Part shown: positions 1-7,312 of the stretch, one piece after another
Position numbering within the stretch: the stretch's first letter is position 1
Layout of the letters: every line of letters starts with the position of its first letter
Source: a virus
Lineage: Duplodnaviria; Heunggongvirae; Uroviricota; Caudoviricetes
Strand: one strand, 5' to 3'
IMG/VR virus record: IMGVR_UViG_2663762886_000007
DNA length: 7,312 nt
Made by a program: the position numbers and the translations under genes
The notes under the pieces: model-generated
The model's input: the letters and a program-made list of their open reading frames with translations, nothing else
Told to the model about the DNA's origin: nothing
Database searches by the model: none

Positions 1-46
1 CTGGCGCACTGACGGTTTCATCGTGGGTGTCGGTTATAAGTTCTGA
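1..46 (+). CDS. lom: Lom (Ail/Lom/OmpX-family outer-membrane protein) C-terminal end, partial; gene continues upstream of the window
   Basis: Frame ending at TGA 44-46 encodes ...WRTDGFIVGVGYKF, identical to the C-terminus of the longer lom fragment at 1115..1516. Followed 28 bp later by a hairpin plus T-run. Whether the upstream lom is intact cannot be seen. Confidence 0.7.
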   Translation, partial: WRTDGFIVGVGYKF

Positions 47-73
47 TTAGCCAGGTAACACAGTGTTATGACA

Positions 74-99
74 GCCCGCCGGTTCAGGCGGGCTTTTTT
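74..99 (+). terminator. Rho-independent terminator downstream of lom (copy 1 of 3)
   Basis: GCCCGCC (74-80), loop GGTTCA, GGCGGGC (87-93), then TTTTTT (94-99). Perfect 7-bp GC-rich stem followed by a U-run. Confidence 0.7.
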
Positions 100-110
100 G
101 TGGGGTGAAT

Positions 111-1154
111 ATGGCAGTAAAGATTTCAGGTGTACTGAAAGACGGCACAGGAAAACCGGTACAGAACTGCACAATCCAGCTGAAAGCAAAACGTAACAGC
201 ACCACGGTGGTGGTGAACACGCTGGCCTCAGAAAATCCGGATGAAGCCGGGCGTTACAGCATGGACGTTGAGTACGGTCAGTACAGCGTTATTCTGTTGG
301 TGGAAGGATTCCCGCCGTCACATGCCGGGACCATCACCGTGTATGAAGATTCCCGACCCGGTACGCTGAATGATTTTCTCGGTGCCATGACGGAGGATGA
401 TGCCCGTCCGGAGGCTCTGCGCCGTTTTGAACTGATGGTGGAAGAGGTGGCGCGTAACGCGTCCGCGGTGGCACAGAACACGGCAGCCGCGAAGAAGTCA
501 GCCAGTGATGCCGGCACATCTGCCCGTGAGGCGGCAACCCATGCGACTGATGCTGCAGATTCAGCACGTGCAGCCAGCACGTCAGCCGGACAGGCCGCTT
601 CGTCGGCTCAGTCAGCGTCTTCCAGCGCAGGAACGGCATCAACAAAGGCCACTGAAGCCTCAAAAAGTGCTGCCGCTGCAGAGTCCTCAAAAAGCGCGGC
701 GGCTACCAGTGCCGGTGCGGCGAAAACGTTAGAAACGAATGCGGCAGCGTCACAACAATCAGCAGCCACTTCTGCATCCACCGCGACCACGAAAGCGTCA
801 GAAGCTGCCACCTCAGCCCGGGATGCGTCGGCTTCAAAAGAGGCGGCAAAATCATCAGAAACGAACGCATCATCAAGCGCCAGTAGCGCAGCTTCCTCGG
901 CGACGGCGGCTGCAAATTCTGCGAAGGCGGCCAAAACGTCCGAGACGAACGCCAGGTCTTCTGAAACGGCAGCGGGACAGAGTGCCTCAGCTGCGGCAGG
1001 CTCAAAAACAGCGGCTGCGTCGTCTGCCAGCGCCGCGTCAACAAGTGCCGGGCAGGCCTCAGCCAGTGCCACCGCCGCCGGAAAATCGGCAGAAAGCGCC
1101 GCATCATCCGCTAGACGTCATTCAGCTATGCAGGAGACAAGAATCGCCAGCTGA
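111..1154 (+). pseudogene. stf: Side tail fibre Stf, N-terminal fragment (copy A); stf sequence ends at about 1112 and the frame runs 14 codons into out-of-frame lom sequence before TGA
   Basis: ATG at 111 ([26 protein letters not shown]...) preceded by GGGGTG as a likely ribosome-binding site; the track's GTG at 105 is less likely the start. Nucleotides 111..1112 are near-identical to 2837..3838 of the full-length copy. After 1112 the sequence is lom-derived and the stf frame ends ...RRHSAMQETRIAS*. Confidence 0.7.
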
Positions 1155-1516
1155 CCCGTTACAGCGATACCCGCTGGCATGAAGATTCCGTTCGTAACCG
1201 CTGGTTCAGCGTGATGGCGGGGCCGTCTGTGCGCGTGAATGAATGGTTCAGCGCGTATGCGATGGCGGGTGTGGCTTACAGCCGTGTGTCGACTTTCTCC
1301 GGGGATTATCTCCGCGTAACTGACAACAAGGGGAAAACGCACGACGTGCTGACCGGAAGTGATGACGGTCGCCACAGCAACACGTCTCTGGCGTGGGGAG
1401 CTGGCGTGCAGTTTAACCCGACCGAATCCGTGGCCATTGATATTGCTTATGAAGGCTCCGGCAGTGGCGACTGGCGCACTGACGGTTTCATCGTGGGTGT
1501 CGGTTATAAGTTCTGA
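1115..1516 (+). pseudogene. lom: lom 3' fragment (about 134 codons) lacking its 5' end and start codon
   Basis: In the lom frame a TAG sits at 1112-1114, then TSFSYAGDKNRQLTRYSDTRWHEDSVRNRWFSVMAGPSVRVNEWFSAYAMAGVAYSRV...GSGSGDWRTDGFIVGVGYKF* to TGA 1514-1516. I recognise this as the C-terminal part of a Lom-type beta-barrel protein. The only in-frame starts are internal (GTG 1211, ATG 1214), with no obvious ribosome-binding site. Confidence 0.7.
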
Positions 1517-1543
1517 TTAGCCAGGTAACACAGTGTTATGACA

Positions 1544-1569
1544 GCCCGCCGGTTCAGGCGGGCTTTTTT
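1544..1569 (+). terminator. Rho-independent terminator downstream of lom (copy 2 of 3)
   Basis: Same GCCCGCC-GGTTCA-GGCGGGC-TTTTTT hairpin as at 74..99. Confidence 0.7.
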
Positions 1570-1580
1570 GTGGGGTGAAT

Positions 1581-2738
1581 ATGGCAGTAAAGATTTCAGG
1601 TGTACTGAAAGACGGCACAGGAAAACCGGTACAGAACTGCACAATCCAGCTGAAAGCAAAACGTAACAGCACCACGGTGGTGGTGAACACGCTGGCCTCA
1701 GAAAATCCGGATGAAGCCGGGCGTTACAGCATGGACGTTGAGTACGGTCAGTACAGCGTTATTCTGTTGGTGGAAGGATTCCCGCCGTCACATGCCGGGA
1801 CCATCACTGTGTATGAAGATTCCCGACCCGGTACGCTGAATGATTTTCTCGGTGCCATGACGGAGGATGATGCCCGTCCGGAGGCTCTGCGCCGTTTTGA
1901 ACTGATGGTGGAAGAGGTGGCGCGTAACGCGTCCGCGGTGGCACAGAACACGGCAGCCGCGAAGAAGTCAGCCAGTGATGCCGGCACATCTGCCCGTGAG
2001 GCGGCAACCCATGCGACTGATGCTGCAGGCTCAGCGCGTGCAGCCAGCACGTCAGCCGGACAGGCCGCGACTTCGGCTCAGGAGGCGTCTTCCAGCGCAG
2101 GAACGGCATCAACAAAGGCCACTGAAGCATCAAAAAGTGCTGCCGCTGCAGAGTCCTCAAAAAGCGCGGCGGCCACCAGTGCCGGTGCGGCGAAAACGTC
2201 AGAAACGAATGCTGCAGCGTCACAAAAATCAGCAGCCACTTCTGCATCCACTGCGACAACGAAAGCGTCAGAAGCCGCCACTTCAGCCAGAGATGCGGCG
2301 GCCTCCAAAGAGGCGGCAAAATCATCAGAAACGAACGCCTCCACAAGCGCCAGCAGTGCAGCCTCCTCGGCAACGGCGGCAGGAAATTCCGTGAAGGCGG
2401 CAAAAACGTCCGAGACGAATGCTAAGTCTTCTGAAACGGCAGCGGAACAGAGCGCCTCAGCTGCGGCAGACTCTGAGACAGCAGCTGCATCATCGGCCCG
2501 TGAGGCGTCCATTAAGGCAGAGGAGGCAGCAGTCAGTGCCACCGCCGCCGGAAAATCGGCAGAAAGCGCCGCATCATCCGCATGGTTCAGCGCGTATGCG
2601 ATGGCGGGTGTGGCTTACAGCCGTGTGTCGACTTTTTCCGGGGATTATATCCGCGTAACTGACAATAAGGGGAAAACGCACGATGTGCTGACCGGAAGTG
2701 ATGACGGTCGCCACAGCAACACGTCTCTGGCGCACTGA
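1581..2738 (+). pseudogene. stf: Stf N-terminal fragment (copy B) fused in frame to lom codons at 2581/2582, then frameshifted by an 83-bp deletion in the lom part
   Basis: ATG 1581. The stf-derived part 1581..2581 is identical to copy A over the first ~450 bp and diverges from copies A and C at many sites from about 2027. From 2582 the sequence is lom (WFSAYAMAGVAYSRVSTFSGDYIRVTDNKGKTHDVLTGSDDGRHSNTSLA) and the frame ends H-stop at TGA 2736-2738 just after the deletion point. Confidence 0.65.
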
Positions 2739-2772
2739 CGGTTTCATCGTGGGTGTCGGTTATAAATTCTGA
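2582..2772 (+). pseudogene. lom: lom 3' fragment (second, shorter) with an internal 83-bp deletion; a diverged lom allele
   Basis: Aligns to 1243..1516 of the longer lom fragment, with substitutions (for example L to I, AAG to AAA at the penultimate codon). The 83 bp corresponding to 1394..1476 are missing, bounded by the hexamer CTGGCG. The original lom stop is TGA 2770-2772. Confidence 0.6.
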
Positions 2773-2799
2773 TTAGCCAGGTAACACAGTGTTATGACA

Positions 2800-2825
2800 G
2801 CCCGCCGGTTCAGGCGGGCTTTTTT
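2800..2825 (+). terminator. Rho-independent terminator downstream of lom (copy 3 of 3)
   Basis: Same hairpin plus T-run as at 74..99 and 1544..1569. Confidence 0.7.
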
Positions 2826-2836
2826 GTGGGGTGAAT

Positions 2837-5800
2837 ATGGCAGTAAAGATTTCAGGTGTACTGAAAGACGGCACAGGAAAACCGGTACAGAACTGCACAA
2901 TCCAGCTGAAAGCAAAACGTAACAGCACCACGGTGGTGGTGAACACGCTGGCCTCAGAAAATCCGGATGAAGCCGGGCGTTACAGCATGGACGTTGAGTA
3001 CGGTCAGTACAGCGTTATTCTGTTGGTGGAAGGATTCCCGCCGTCACATGCCGGGACCATCACCGTGTATGAAGATTCCCGACCCGGTACGCTGAATGAT
3101 TTTCTCGGTGCCATGACGGAGGATGATGCCCGTCCGGAGGCACTGCGCCGTTTTGAGCTGATGGTGGAAGAGGTGGCGCGTAACGCGTCCGCGGTGGCAC
3201 AGAACACGGCAGCCGCGAAGAAATCAGCCAGCGATGCCAGCACATCAGCCCGTGAGGCGGCAACCCATGCGACTGATGCTGCAGATTCAGCACGTGCAGC
3301 CAGCACGTCAGCCGGACAGGCCGCTTCGTCGGCTCAGTCAGCGTCTTCCAGCGCAGGAACGGCATCAACAAAGGCCACTGAAGCCTCAAAAAGTGCTGCC
3401 GCTGCAGAGTCCTCAAAAAGCGCGGCGGCTACCAGTGCCGGTGCGGCGAAAACGTTAGAAACGAATGCGGCAGCGTCACAACAATCAGCAGCCACTTCTG
3501 CATCCACCGCGACCACGAAAGCGTCAGAAGCTGCCACCTCAGCCCGGGATGCGTCGGCTTCAAAAGAGGCGGCAAAATCATCAGAAACGAACGCATCATC
3601 AAGCGCCAGTAGCGCAGCTTCCTCGGCGACGGCGGCTGCAAATTCTGCGAAGGCGGCCAAAACGTCCGAGACGAACGCCAGGTCTTCTGAAACGGCAGCG
3701 GGACAGAGTGCCTCAGCTGCGGCAGGCTCAAAAACAGCGGCTGCGTCGTCTGCCAGCGCCGCGTCAACAAGTGCCGGGCAGGCCTCAGCCAGTGCCACCG
3801 CCGCCGGAAAATCGGCAGAAAGCGCCGCATCATCCGCTTCAACAGCCACAACGAAGGCTGGCGAAGCCACTGAACAGGCCAGCGCAGCAGCGAGGTCTGC
3901 TTCCGCAGCGAAGACATCCGAAACGAACGCGAAAGCGTCGGAAACCCGTGCAGAATCCTCAAAAACGGCTGCCGCATCGTCCGCCAGTTCGGCGGCGTCA
4001 TCGGCATCATCGGCGTCTGCTTCAAAAGATGAGGCGACCAGACAGGCGTCAGCAGCGAAGGGCAGCGCCACGACGGCATCCACGAAGGCGACAGAGGCTG
4101 CTGGTAGTGCGACGGCAGCAGCTCAGAGCAAAAGTACGGCGGAATCTGCAGCAACGCGCGCTGAGACAGCGGCAAAACGGGCAGAGGATATTGCATCCGC
4201 CGTGGCGCTTGAGGATGCGAGCACGACGAAAAAGGGGATAGTACAGCTCAGTAGTGCGACTAACAGCACTTCCGAGTCACTGGCGGCAACACCAAAAGCC
4301 GTTAAGGCCGCGTATGACCTGGCTAACGGGAAATACACCGCACAGGATGCAACGACAGCACAGAAAGGGATAATCCAGCTAAGCAGCGCGACCAACAGCA
4401 CGTCTGAAACGCTGGCGGCAACGCCAAAGGCAGTAAAAGCAGCCAATGACAATGCTGAGAAACGTCTGCAGAAAGATCAGAACGGTGCGGATATCCCTGG
4501 CAAAGACACCTTTACGAAAAATATTGGTGCCTGCCGTGCCTTCGGTGGGTCAGTAAGCACAACAACAGGAAACTGGACGACTGCACAGTTTATCGAGTGG
4601 CTGGATTCTCAGGGAGCATTTAACCATCCATACTGGATGTGCAAGGGTTCCTGGTCTTATGGCAATAATAAAATCATTACTGATACTGGCTGCGGTAATA
4701 TTCATCTCGCCGGAGCTGTCATTGAAGTAATGGGGATAAAGTCAGCGATGACGATCCGCATTACCACTCCGACCACATCCAGCGGTGGCGGAACAACCAA
4801 CGCCCAGTTTACCTATATTAATCACGGAACAGATTATTCACCTGGCTGGCGAAGGGACTATAACTCCAGAAATAAGCCAACGGCATCAGAGATCGGGGCG
4901 CTACCGTCAGGTGGAACAGCAGTATCATCAGTTAATCTGGCTTCAAAAGGTCGGGTAGCCGCGCTGACAGACAATACGCAGGGGGCAGCAGGTCTTGAGT
5001 TATACGAGGTGTATAACAACGGATATCCAACAGCGTATGGAAATATCATTCACCTGAAAGGGATGACAGCCGTTGGCGAAGGTGAGTTACTCATCGGCTG
5101 GAGTGGTACAAGCGGTGCTCATGCTCCGGCATTTATTCGTTCACGACGGGATACGACCGACGCAAACTGGTCGCCGTGGGCGCAGCTTTACACCTCGGCT
5201 CATCCTCCTGCAGAGTTTTATCCAGTCGGTGCACCAATCCCGTGGCCATCAGATACCGTTCCGTCTGGTTATGCCCTGATGCAGGGGCAGACTTTTGACA
5301 AATCTGCTTACCCGAAACTTGCAGCCGCTTATCCGTCAGGCGTGATCCCTGATATGCGTGGCTGGACGATTAAGGGCAAGCCCGCCAGTGGTCGTGCCGT
5401 ATTGTCTCAGGAACAGGATGGCATTAAATCGCACACCCACAGCGCCAGCGCATCCAGTACGGATTTGGGGACGAAAACCACATCGTCGTTTGATTACGGC
5501 ACTAAATCCACGAATAACACCGGGGCGCATACGCACAGTCTGAGCGGCTCTACAAGTTCAGCTGGGGCCCACCAACATAGTCAGACTGGGCCCAGAACGA
5601 ATAGCGGGAGTCAACCTACTGGAATGTTTCCGGCAGGGAGTACTCAAGTTAGCGGGACTAATCAGGTTGGTATCAGTGGCTCATTAACCAGTGGCACCTC
5701 CCAATGGGTAGGTAAATCATCTTCAGAAGGAAACCATACACACTCACTGTCCGGCACAGCAGCATCTGCGGGTGCACACGCGCATACTGTCGGTATTGGT

Positions 5801-5920
5801 GCTCATACGCACTCTGTTGCGATTGGTTCACATGGACACACCATCACCGTTAACGCTGCTGGTAACGCGGAAAACACCGTCAAAAACATCGCATTTAACT
5901 ATATTGTGAGGCTCGCATAA
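2837..5920 (+). CDS. stf: Side tail fibre protein Stf, full length (1027 aa)
   Basis: Long ORF starting [26 protein letters not shown]... with an Ala/Ser/Thr-rich repetitive shaft, a duplicated GI[VI][11 protein letters not shown][ST][11 protein letters not shown] motif, and a His-rich C-terminal region (HTHS, HQHS, HAHT, HGHT) ending ...[19 protein letters not shown] recognise this as lambda Stf-like. Stop TAA 5918-5920 overlaps the tfa ATG by 1 nt. Confidence 0.85.
4235..4450 (+). repeat. Intragenic tandem duplication (period 132 bp, 44 codons) of a 28-aa motif inside stf
   Basis: 4235..4318 encodes [28 protein letters not shown] and 4367..4450 encodes [28 protein letters not shown]. The protein is conserved but many synonymous sites differ, so the duplication is old and under selection. 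Confidence 0.8.
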
Positions 5921-6501
5921 TGGCATTCAGAATGAGTGAACAAGCACGGACCATAAAAATTTATAACCTGCTGGCCGGAACTAATGAATTTATTGGTGAA
6001 GGTGACGCATATATTCCGCCTCATACAGGTCTGCCTGCAAACAGTACCGATATTGCACCGCCAGATATTCCGGCTGGTTTCGTGGCTGTTTTCAACAGTG
6101 ATGAGTCATCGTGGCATCTCGTTGAAGATCATCGGGGTAAAACGGTTTATGACGTGGCTTCCGGCGACGCGTTATTTATTTCTGAACTCGGCTCATTACC
6201 GGAAAATGTCACCTGGTTATCCCCGGAAGGGGAGTTTCAGAAGTGGAACGGCACAGCCTGGGTGAAGGATACGGAAGCAGAAAAACTGTTCCGGATCCGG
6301 GAGGCGGAAGAAACAAAAAACAGCCTGATGCAGGTAGCCAGTGAGCATATAGCGCCGCTTCAGGATGCTGTGGATCTGGAGATCGCAACGGAGAAAGAAA
6401 CCTTGTTGCTGGAAGCTTGGAAAAAGTATCGGGTGTTGCTGAACCGTGTTGATACATCAACTGCACCGGATATTGAATGGCCAGTAGCACCTATAGGGTA
6501 A
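5920..6501 (+). CDS. tfa: Tail fibre assembly protein Tfa (193 aa)
   Basis: [61 protein letters not shown]..., which I recognise as close to lambda Tfa (phage T4 gp38-like chaperone family). Translationally coupled to stf through TAATG, with GAGGCT about 8 nt upstream. Confidence 0.9.
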
Positions 6502-6587
6502 ATTCGTAATGATTACCTAAATACGTTATTCTTTTGTTAAAAAAGTGATTTTGCTATAGGTAGGGAGTATGTTCTTGGATTAAGAAT

Positions 6588-6618
6588 AAAAAATCGCCAT
6601 GAAAGAGCTTCATGGCGA
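6588..6618 (-). terminator. Candidate rho-independent terminator for leftward (minus-strand) transcription
   Basis: Perfect inverted repeat CGCCATGAA (6595-6603), loop AGAGC, TTCATGGCG (6609-6617). On the minus strand the stem is followed by a U-run (complement of A-run 6588-6593). No minus-strand ORF is visible upstream of it in this window. Confidence 0.4.
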
Positions 6619-6947
6619 GTACATAAACGTACAAAATGTGATGAAAGTAGAGTGGCGTAAGCCACTATATTAAGATATGACAATAGCGAAGAAAAGTAAA
6701 TAACATTTTATGGACGTTTAATTGTTAATTATAAAAACTAGAGTGCCCGATATTGTTTATCTTGCTTTAAAATAATGTACTCAAACCAAATTTTTGAGCT
6801 AAAAGCTCAAATAATATAAATGCAATAATAATGTTTAATAAGACAATTAGCTTGCTTTGTATTTTCATTTCGGAATACTGTTAAGTAACTTTGATGACCC
6901 TAACAATAGATCGGAATTTTCTTAGAGTCAATGGTCACTGTTTTTGC

Positions 6948-6977
6948 TTGCAAAGCAAATGTTTTGGTGGTTATAAG
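6948..6977 (+). promoter_or_regulatory. Weak sigma70-like promoter candidate (TTGCAA - 17 bp - TTATAA)
   Basis: Hexamers at 6948-6953 and 6971-6976 with 17-bp spacing. Such matches occur by chance in AT-rich DNA, and it overlaps a small AT-rich hairpin (about 6943-6959). Confidence 0.15.
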
Positions 6978-7249
6978 TCGTCTTAATATAGTCACGCATG
7001 CAACTTGTTCCATGCGGAGATTAAAGATTGGAATATAACGCGAAGATGGAATTAAATTACATTTGCAATAATTAATTTATTATTACTCAATAATTACCGA
7101 TATTATTATTGTAAATTAATCATTAGAATGCAAAAAGAAATGTAACGGCAAAATAAGAGGACGATAGCTGAGAAAAAAGCGTGCTTTCCCAATCTGGGGC
7201 AAATCACGTCTGAATGACACCTGAAAACAGGTGGTAGCCTCAAGAAGGC

Positions 7250-7312
7250 TGGTGATGCTGCCAACTTACTGATTTAGTGTATGATGGTGTTTTTGAGGTG
7301 CTCCAGTGGCTT
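7250..7312 (+). other. Segment resembling the edge of a p15A-type (pACYC184) plasmid replicon fragment
   Basis: From memory, GGTGATGCTGCCAACTTACTGATTTAGTGTATGATGGTGTTTTTGAGGTGCTCCAGTGGCTT matches the sequence immediately after the cat-side junction in pACYC184, where the p15A-derived part begins. I cannot run a search, so this is recall only. Confidence 0.35.

Follow-up and report, generated by a model that had tools for sequence, protein, structure and literature searches.

The DNA analyzed in this study (hereafter the window) is a stretch of 7,312 nucleotides from a member of Caudoviricetes (IMG/VR record IMGVR_UViG_2663762886_000007), and corresponds to the whole of contig CXFW01000202.1 in the draft assembly GCA_001251215.1. 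The window carries a side tail fibre gene (stf) followed by a tail fibre assembly gene (tfa). One or more lom fragments precede stf, giving the lom-stf-tfa order known from lambda, which is also the order in E. coli RM14723, and tfa is followed by an AT-rich spacer and the end of an IS1. The two genes and the parts of the Stf protein are listed below, in which the residues are counted from the GTG codon at 2831 (note that the ATG at 2837 is the probable start, and that the gene call in the source record spans 2837-5920).

2831..5920, + strand: stf, side tail fibre gene, 1029 aa from GTG 2831 (open reading frame list, Pfam and PDB matches)
5920..6501, + strand: tfa, tail fibre assembly gene, 193 codons (Pfam Caudo_TAP, E 4.6e-44)
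Stf aa 3-136: phage_tail_N domain (PF08400; Pfam E 1.4e-71)
Stf about aa 137-455: Ala/Ser-rich shaft
Stf aa 456-543: two Phage_fiber_2 units
Stf about aa 541-724: Mu S'-like domain (PDB match 8ju3, E 1e-86)
Stf about aa 796-1029: T4 gp37-like tip with a Collar domain (PF07484, by Pfam; PDB match 2xgf, E 1.7e-82)

The protein possesses the PF08400 domain and its gene is located after lom and before tfa, as is characteristic of lambda-type Stf. Judging from these matches, the gene is assigned as a lambda-type stf accompanied by its own tfa, the product of which is predicted to be the chaperone partner of the distal tip of Stf. Stf itself is a mosaic whose modules have counterparts in lambda, Mu, and T4. 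Its role as a trimeric, receptor-binding side fibre is suggested by the homology of its distal end to the T4 gp37 tip.

The first 3.8 kb of the window contains three tandem copies of a segment made of the 3' part of lom and the 5' 1.1 kb of stf. The two joints leading from stf to lom share the same stf position within 1 nt but enter lom at two positions 129 nt apart, and neither of them displays microhomology. The middle copy is merely 94% identical to the outer two, and the near-identical locus L005 has a single copy. Exact searches found neither joint in IMG/VR, in 5426 complete E. coli genomes, or in the species genomes of GTDB; in the JGI metagenomes, A/B, the first of the two joints and the one searched for there, was likewise absent. 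The triple lom'-stf' repeat is probably an artefact of the draft assembly, of which scaffolding or gap-closing of paralogous prophage pieces is the most likely cause.

Within Stf, a motif of 26 residues occurs twice, as had been noticed in a reading of the sequence without database searches (hereafter the sequence-only reading). The repeat units enclosing the two core motifs and the sequence directly after them are as follows.

4196..4327, + strand: Phage_fiber_2 unit 1, 'first-type', aa 456-499, core motif 4235-4312 (Pfam PF03406 stretch aa 464-504; also our own profile search)
4328..4459, + strand: Phage_fiber_2 unit 2, 'last-type', aa 500-543, core motif 4367-4444 (second PF03406 stretch)
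4460..4504, + strand: conserved joint extension of 15 residues, aa 544-558, common to several differing downstream modules and Mu S

In the translation of the open reading frame 2831..5920, the cores start at 4235 and 4367, exactly 132 nt or 44 codons apart, and are identical at 24 of 26 residues, confirming the spacing given in the sequence-only reading. The entire 44-residue units are identical at 30 positions. A Pfam search identified the family as PF03406 (Phage_fiber_2, 'phage tail fibre repeat'), which matched Stf in two stretches with an E value of 6.3e-37 and 125.3 bits against a curated gathering cut-off of 22; the better stretch covers positions 1-41 of the 42 in the profile. Besides scoring above the gathering threshold, the element is a repeat of about 40 residues (period 44) in a tail fibre protein, as the family definition demands. 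A repeat search of the window recovered the same pair (4212-4318 and 4344-4450; 74% nucleotide identity), whereas Tandem Repeats Finder gave no report of the 132-nt unit pair. The pair of repeats is far beyond chance. At the level of its protein sequence, the feature is a two-unit PF03406 array in a lambda-type Stf, every testable defining feature of which was found. The joint extension aligns to residues about 150-172 of Mu S/S'.

The DNA of the two units has diverged considerably in spite of the resemblance of the proteins. Only 84 of the 132 nt (64%) are identical between the units and 60 of the 78 nt between the cores, with 11 nt as the longest exact run. The differing codons comprise 17 synonymous versus 14 non-synonymous changes. 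As the core protein is kept while the synonymous sites differ, the protein has been under purifying selection and the synonymous sites have drifted. The same divergence means that homologous recombination between these two units is not possible. The pair did not arise by recent duplication, and 'tandemly duplicated', the wording of the sequence-only reading, holds for the layout of the units but not for their history. Compared with the unit types described below, the array of the window has the minimal composition of a single first-type and a single last-type unit, which are the kinds that have diverged most.

The repeat is distributed widely. A tblastn search with the 89-residue region matched 441 phage records, including lambda-like, P2-like, and P1 phages, Stx podophages, Haemophilus HP2, and a Pseudomonas jumbo phage. 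In a set of 1.84 billion representative proteins, matches at E <= 1e-3 were obtained in 2727 clusters, and the best-scoring 145 of those clusters had 2 to 15 units with spacings of 37-38, 44, 56, or 63 residues. The proposal that the block recurs in otherwise unrelated fibres is therefore borne out by lambda Stf, P2 H, Mu S, P1 S, 933W-type fibres, HP2, and the Pseudomonas jumbo phage, as well as by the clusters mentioned above. The number of units per protein differs among the known fibres. Ur-lambda Stf, Mu S (residues 112-149), HP2, and YeP3 have one unit each, P2 H has two, PA5oct has three, and P1 S has one plus a degenerate one.

To describe the arrays of close relatives, we used a set of 81 fibre open reading frames (80 IMG/VR loci and the window), and took the domain architectures from the IMG/VR loci and phage records. 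The period was strictly 44 residues throughout the set. Two units were found in 39 open reading frames (38 besides the window), three in 20, four in 16, five in 5, and seven in a single one. The units differ in type according to their position. The first type is tied to the lambda-type shaft, the internal units end with AAYDLAN, and the tail of the last-type unit (..DNAE, ..MDETN, or ..DNAN) goes with the sequence downstream. One locus (L042) has three internal units with 100% DNA identity, and there were 66 haplotype pairs that share both flanks and differ in copy number alone. From these identical internal units and copy-number-only pairs, it follows that the arrays expand and contract. Array DNA was present in 4444 of the 5426 complete E. 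coli genomes, at a median of 3 and a maximum of 26 places per genome (plasmids included), and thus the partners for recombination are normally present in the same cell.

We then asked with which modules the arrays are combined. When the 120 residues on each side of the array were clustered at 70% identity across the 81 loci, there were 5 upstream and 10 downstream module types in 16 combinations. The combinations form a single connected graph (13 nodes, 16 edges), which implies at least 4 reticulations. The downstream type of the window was found behind the lambda-type shaft and also behind two N-termini of the P2 H type. At least 6 kinds of sequence directly follow one 16-residue array end, and downstream clusters that diverge from one another only further on all open with the same 13-residue stretch.

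The positions at which DNA identity breaks were mapped by the ends of nucleotide HSPs against the window (>=88% identity). In about 30 lambda-type loci, the right ends fell at 4437-4456, that is, at the end of unit 2, and in 5 loci they fell at 4497, corresponding to the end of the 15-residue joint extension. The left ends of two loci (L044 and L045) fell at 4231-4232, where the core of unit 1 starts. Further junction clusters at 5187/5214 and 5547-5577 coincide with other domain boundaries, which have no shared motif. L044 and L045 are P2-like in gpJ, gpI, and the N-terminus of H, which is 73% identical to that of P2, and their DNA is 96.6% identical to positions 4231-5506 of the window. These two loci record an exchange that joined a siphovirus-type fibre to a myovirus-type one inside the array. 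Module boundaries thus coincide with the motif, as the sequence-only reading had expected. The motif occurs in other fibre families, and the relatives do not carry two copies uniformly (close relatives have 1 to 7 and distant ones as many as 15) and do have mosaic boundaries nearby.

The same tendency was seen when the loci were compared pairwise, although counts of locus pairs are not equal to independent events: among the pairs sharing the upstream part, 79% of the homology ends fell inside the array or no more than 60 nt past it, a region that accounts for about a fifth of the distance from the array start to the gene end. In the pairs with the same upstream but unrelated downstream parts, 499 of 502 breaks were located in the last unit or within 47 nt beyond it, while 62 of 64 breaks were 36-95 nt into the first unit in the pairs with the same downstream but unrelated upstream parts; this clustering is partly forced, as the pre-selection of the pairs confines the breaks to the neighbourhood of the array, and breaks defined by the loss of identity fall at the edge of any conserved block regardless of whether crossing-over took place inside it.

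Altogether, we consider it likely that the array is a conserved structural adapter, which short patches of homology and a position at a domain boundary have turned into a preferred point of exchange. The starting points of this reading are all observed: what the repeat is, that its copy number varies, that modules are joined combinatorially, and where DNA identity breaks off. The array would be a protein-level structural element of the trimeric fibre, and it lies at the joint between the virion-proximal part (the attachment domain and the Ala/Ser-rich shaft) and the interchangeable distal modules for receptor binding. Each unit may form a self-contained trimeric node or hinge. A unit followed by a short conserved tail is common to the fibres of lambda-like, P2-like, Mu-like, and P1-like phages. 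As the unit is shared across fibres and most E. coli genomes harbor several copies in co-resident prophages, short DNA identity is provided at a place where chimeras still fold. Homologous or relaxed-homologous recombination in or beside the array could then swap the distal part, leaving a break at the last unit, and the same kind of recombination could swap the proximal part, leaving a break in the first unit. The copy number could change when units recombine unequally. The exchanges would, according to this proposal, be driven by homology rather than merely selected afterwards.

The lengths of the exact DNA matches bear directly on the last point. Arrays with both flanks unrelated share exact matches with a median of 20 nt (range 13-177), compared with 8 nt in control flanks, and the array of the window shares 23 nt with lambda and 32 nt with P2. 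On the other hand, the longest exact matches to the units of Mu, P1, 933W, and HP2 are 11-12 nt, and thus DNA homology cannot explain the exchanges between those families. Red-beta pairs over segments of at least 23-27 bp and RecA over at least 31-34 bp (PMC3945230), both longer than the median exact match of 20 nt. Phage Rad52-like recombinases also tolerate divergence (PMC3945230). No Chi site was found in the window.

In a profile search of the PDB with the units, Mu S and S' were the only proteins found. An AlphaFold2 monomer prediction of aa 446-610 from a 57-sequence alignment gave a pLDDT of 53 and a pTM of 0.19, which are too low to use. In the rotary-shadowing electron microscopy of a 933W-type fibre, the Pf2 region was interpreted as a globular node inside the fibre, with a stalk on either side (PMC3368898). 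The position is structurally permissive. In Mu, the invertible G segment begins about 20 codons past the unit, and the joint also tolerates an artificial fusion. The engineered lambda STF(1-393)-phiV10 chimera is functional (bioRxiv 10.1101/2025.02.28.640725), and its lambda part ends with MDETNR, 6 residues past the single unit of lambda.

How the two units of the window relate to each other deserves separate consideration. Distal exchanges break at or just after the last unit and proximal ones in the first, so that a single adapter is bordered by unit 1 on its left and unit 2 on its right. The sequence-only reading had taken the two copies as alternative crossover points for exchanging the distal part. 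The breaks do occur at the array, but the distal ones are found at the last unit only and the first unit is the proximal border, so that the two units delimit the adapter and are not interchangeable sites for one kind of exchange. This is the refinement offered by the present analysis. Going one step further, the array might be a polar adapter cassette variable in copy number, in which the first-type unit is tied to the proximal module, the last-type unit is tied to the distal module, and identical internal units are gained and lost. We put this forward tentatively, regarding it as possible but doubtful. If true, the fibres of siphoviruses and myoviruses could exchange either half, the length or the hinge flexibility of the fibre could be tuned, and the cassette could be maintained partly by selection for evolvability.

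A different explanation takes the repeat as purely structural. Modules would be joined anywhere, illegitimate events included, and only the chimeras joined at a domain boundary would survive, with no causal part for DNA homology. Several observations are consistent with it. The synonymous sites have come close to saturation between the units in spite of a conserved protein, the junction clusters at 5187/5214 and 5547-5577 lie at domain boundaries devoid of any shared motif, and the engineered fusion mentioned above works at this very point with no homology. In addition, the exact matches of merely 11-12 nt to the units of Mu, P1, 933W, and HP2 favor this explanation for the exchanges between distant families. 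Nevertheless, E. coli prophage arrays with unrelated flanks share far longer exact stretches than the control flanks do (up to 177 nt), the breaks are in register within the unit cores as is predicted for homologous exchange, and the identical internal units and the copy-number-only changes point to unequal homologous exchange. As a general account, we thus regard the purely structural explanation as unlikely, and retain the view that the array is a structural adapter at which homology promotes exchange.

The exchange might instead be site-specific, carried out by Din-family invertases (Gin, Cin, and Pin) at crossover sites just 3' of the conserved block. An explanation of this kind, as in Mu G, P1 C, and p15B Min, is attributed to Sandmeier 1994 in PMC3945230. 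The boundary of the Mu G segment is at about codon 170 of S, just past the equivalent of the joint extension and about 20 codons after the unit, and in E. coli RM14723, a close relative, tfa is immediately followed by the recombinase gene pinR, both of which would fit such an explanation. Yet no Din-family invertase gene was found beside the fibre and assembly genes or elsewhere among the open reading frames of the window, and no crossover site of the gix, cix, or pix type (core AAACCNNGGTTT) follows the conserved block or occurs anywhere in stf. Allowing 2 mismatches, AAACCNNGGTTT was found twice in other parts of the window, where 2.6 such matches would be expected by chance. No reverse-strand open reading frames that could represent inverted alternative fibre or assembly segments were found downstream of tfa in the window. 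Lacking the invertase, the crossover site, and the inverted segments, the window does not represent an invertase-switched system such as Mu G, P1 C, p15B Min, or e14 P. Moreover, the gix-equivalent position is reached only downstream of the main junction cluster (4437-4456), the P2-like junction at 4231 lies on the opposite side of the array, and the changes in copy number are left unaccounted for. Site-specific exchange is therefore very improbable for this gene in our judgment.

Finally, there is next to no chance that the two units are a recent tandem duplication, a slippage product, or an assembly artefact with no particular meaning: the window is indeed an entire 7.3-kb draft contig with another artefactual-looking repeat structure, but the DNA identity between the units is low, two-unit arrays are found in nearly half of the fibre open reading frames examined (39 of 81), and the array of the window is not an assembly artefact, as identical copies exist in independent records, namely locus L013 (100% identical to window positions 4060-6181) and E. 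coli RM14723 (100% identical across 4196-4462).

That P2 H, Mu S, P1 S, and lambda Stf all contain the repeat, and that it is connected with the exchange of fibre genes, was described in the early 1990s. Both the repeat, which is a curated Pfam family, and its role in exchange are already known, and nothing in our results is new in kind; the current understanding is left unchanged. Going by the reference list of PMC3945230, the idea goes back to 1992-94 (Haggard-Ljungquist 1992; Sandmeier 1992 and 1994). The RBPseg fibre atlas paper does not mention the repeat. The interpretation given in the sequence-only reading is supported and was largely right, with one more reservation. The mosaic boundaries coincide with the proposed recombination linker, but the conservation of the motif is at the protein level and not at the DNA level, so that the role as a linker may simply follow from the motif and not be what it is there for. 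From the practical point of view, the joint after the repeat is a natural point for re-targeting phage tail fibres, lately used by engineers as well, and the array edges, at which the DNA identity between lambda-like and P2-like fibres sets in and breaks off, offer a concrete, transferable fusion point for chimeric fibres. The same finding accounts for the interruption of short-read assemblies of enterobacterial genomes at this site.

Among the closest known systems is the collagen-like protein EPclB of EHEC prophages (933W-type; PMC3368898). It likewise places PF03406 (Pf2) between two rod-like segments, but the flanking rods are collagen triple helices, the virion is that of a podovirus, and the protein identity to the array of the window is about 46%. 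In Mu S/S' (gp49; PDB 5YVQ, 9KI1, and 8JU3), one unit (residues 107-148 by the profile match) is followed by the same ...RL.KD.NGADIP.K stretch as in the window, and aa 541-724 of the window Stf is closely similar to the S' part of 8JU3. The distal part of the Mu fibre is switched by Gin-mediated inversion of the G segment, in contrast to the window, which has neither an invertase nor a crossover site. P2 H resembles the window in the array itself, as it has two tandem units (aa 170-207 and 208-251) with a period of 44 residues, 82% protein identity to the array of the window, and the exact DNA match of 32 nt. It differs in having an unrelated N-terminus for attachment to the myovirus baseplate and the lambda-type MDETNKKAPL module downstream; nonetheless, the P2-like loci L044 and L045 carry the distal part of the window from 4231 onward at 96.6% nucleotide identity. 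Lambda Stf (Ur-lambda, UniProt P03764) shares several characteristics with the window, namely the position between lom and tfa, the phage_tail_N domain, the Ala/Ser-rich shaft, the same 30-residue lead-in to the motif, the gp37-like tip, and the Tfa chaperone. Lambda has a single unit followed by MDETNRKAPL and another middle module, whereas the window has two units followed by the 13-residue stretch and the Mu S'-like domain.

Window positions 1-3838 were found to comprise three tandem copies of a unit (lom'-stf') consisting of the 3' part of lom, the intergenic region and the first 1.1 kb of the side tail fibre gene stf. The two outer copies were 99.4% identical to one another, and the middle copy shared 94% identity with each of them. 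The triple repeat generates a truncated stf ORF and an in-frame Stf-Lom fusion ORF, which are listed here with the other features of the window.

Features of the window
1-1112: lom'-stf' copy 1
105..1154: truncated stf ORF
513-1112: further copy of the stf shaft region
1471-2581: lom'-stf' copy 2 (middle)
1575..2738: in-frame Stf-Lom fusion ORF
1983-2581: further copy of the stf shaft region
2727-3838: lom'-stf' copy 3
7251-7312: IS1 end, at the right contig edge

On the stf side, the two novel joints lie at the same position (within 1 nt); their lom sides differ, and no microhomology was found at either. Neither joint was detected in complete E. coli genomes, IMG/VR or GTDB genomes, and the first (A/B) was not found in JGI metagenomes either. 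As the window is the entire contig of a draft assembly (GCA_001251215.1), the triple repeat probably arose as an artefact of assembly or scaffolding. Almost all top database hits for the motif region of stf (proteins P0001-P0120) were "partial" and encoded on contigs of only 200-570 bp, suggesting that enterobacterial short-read assemblies routinely break at this multi-copy repeat.

Downstream of the tail fibre assembly gene tfa, the AT-rich region (window 6501-7250) contained no convincing ORF, and related complete genomes carry an annotated IS1A at the position of the IS1 end. In E. coli RM14723 (L091; NZ_CP027103.1), of which the stf-tfa module is a close relative of that in the window, the recombinase gene pinR (8341-8931) lies directly 3' of tfa. 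This pinR is possibly the remnant of an invertible fibre-switch system, and such a system is absent from the window.

The Ala/Ser-rich shaft of stf (window 3239-4195, with further copies at 513-1112 and 1983-2581) bears degenerate DNA repeats at intervals that are multiples of 42 nt, equal to 14 codons or two heptads, which fits the coiled-coil "PCoil" region described in related fibres. In distal stf, the positions at which DNA identity to relatives breaks formed further clusters at window 5187-5214, 5547-5577 and 5710-5739, located where the Collar/gp37-like tip begins and within the His-rich region of the tip. These clusters are extra fibre module boundaries, and they have no shared repeat. 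The counterpart of the boundary at 5187-5214 in lambda Stf is the GAGENS position (residue 528), which serves as an engineering fusion point.
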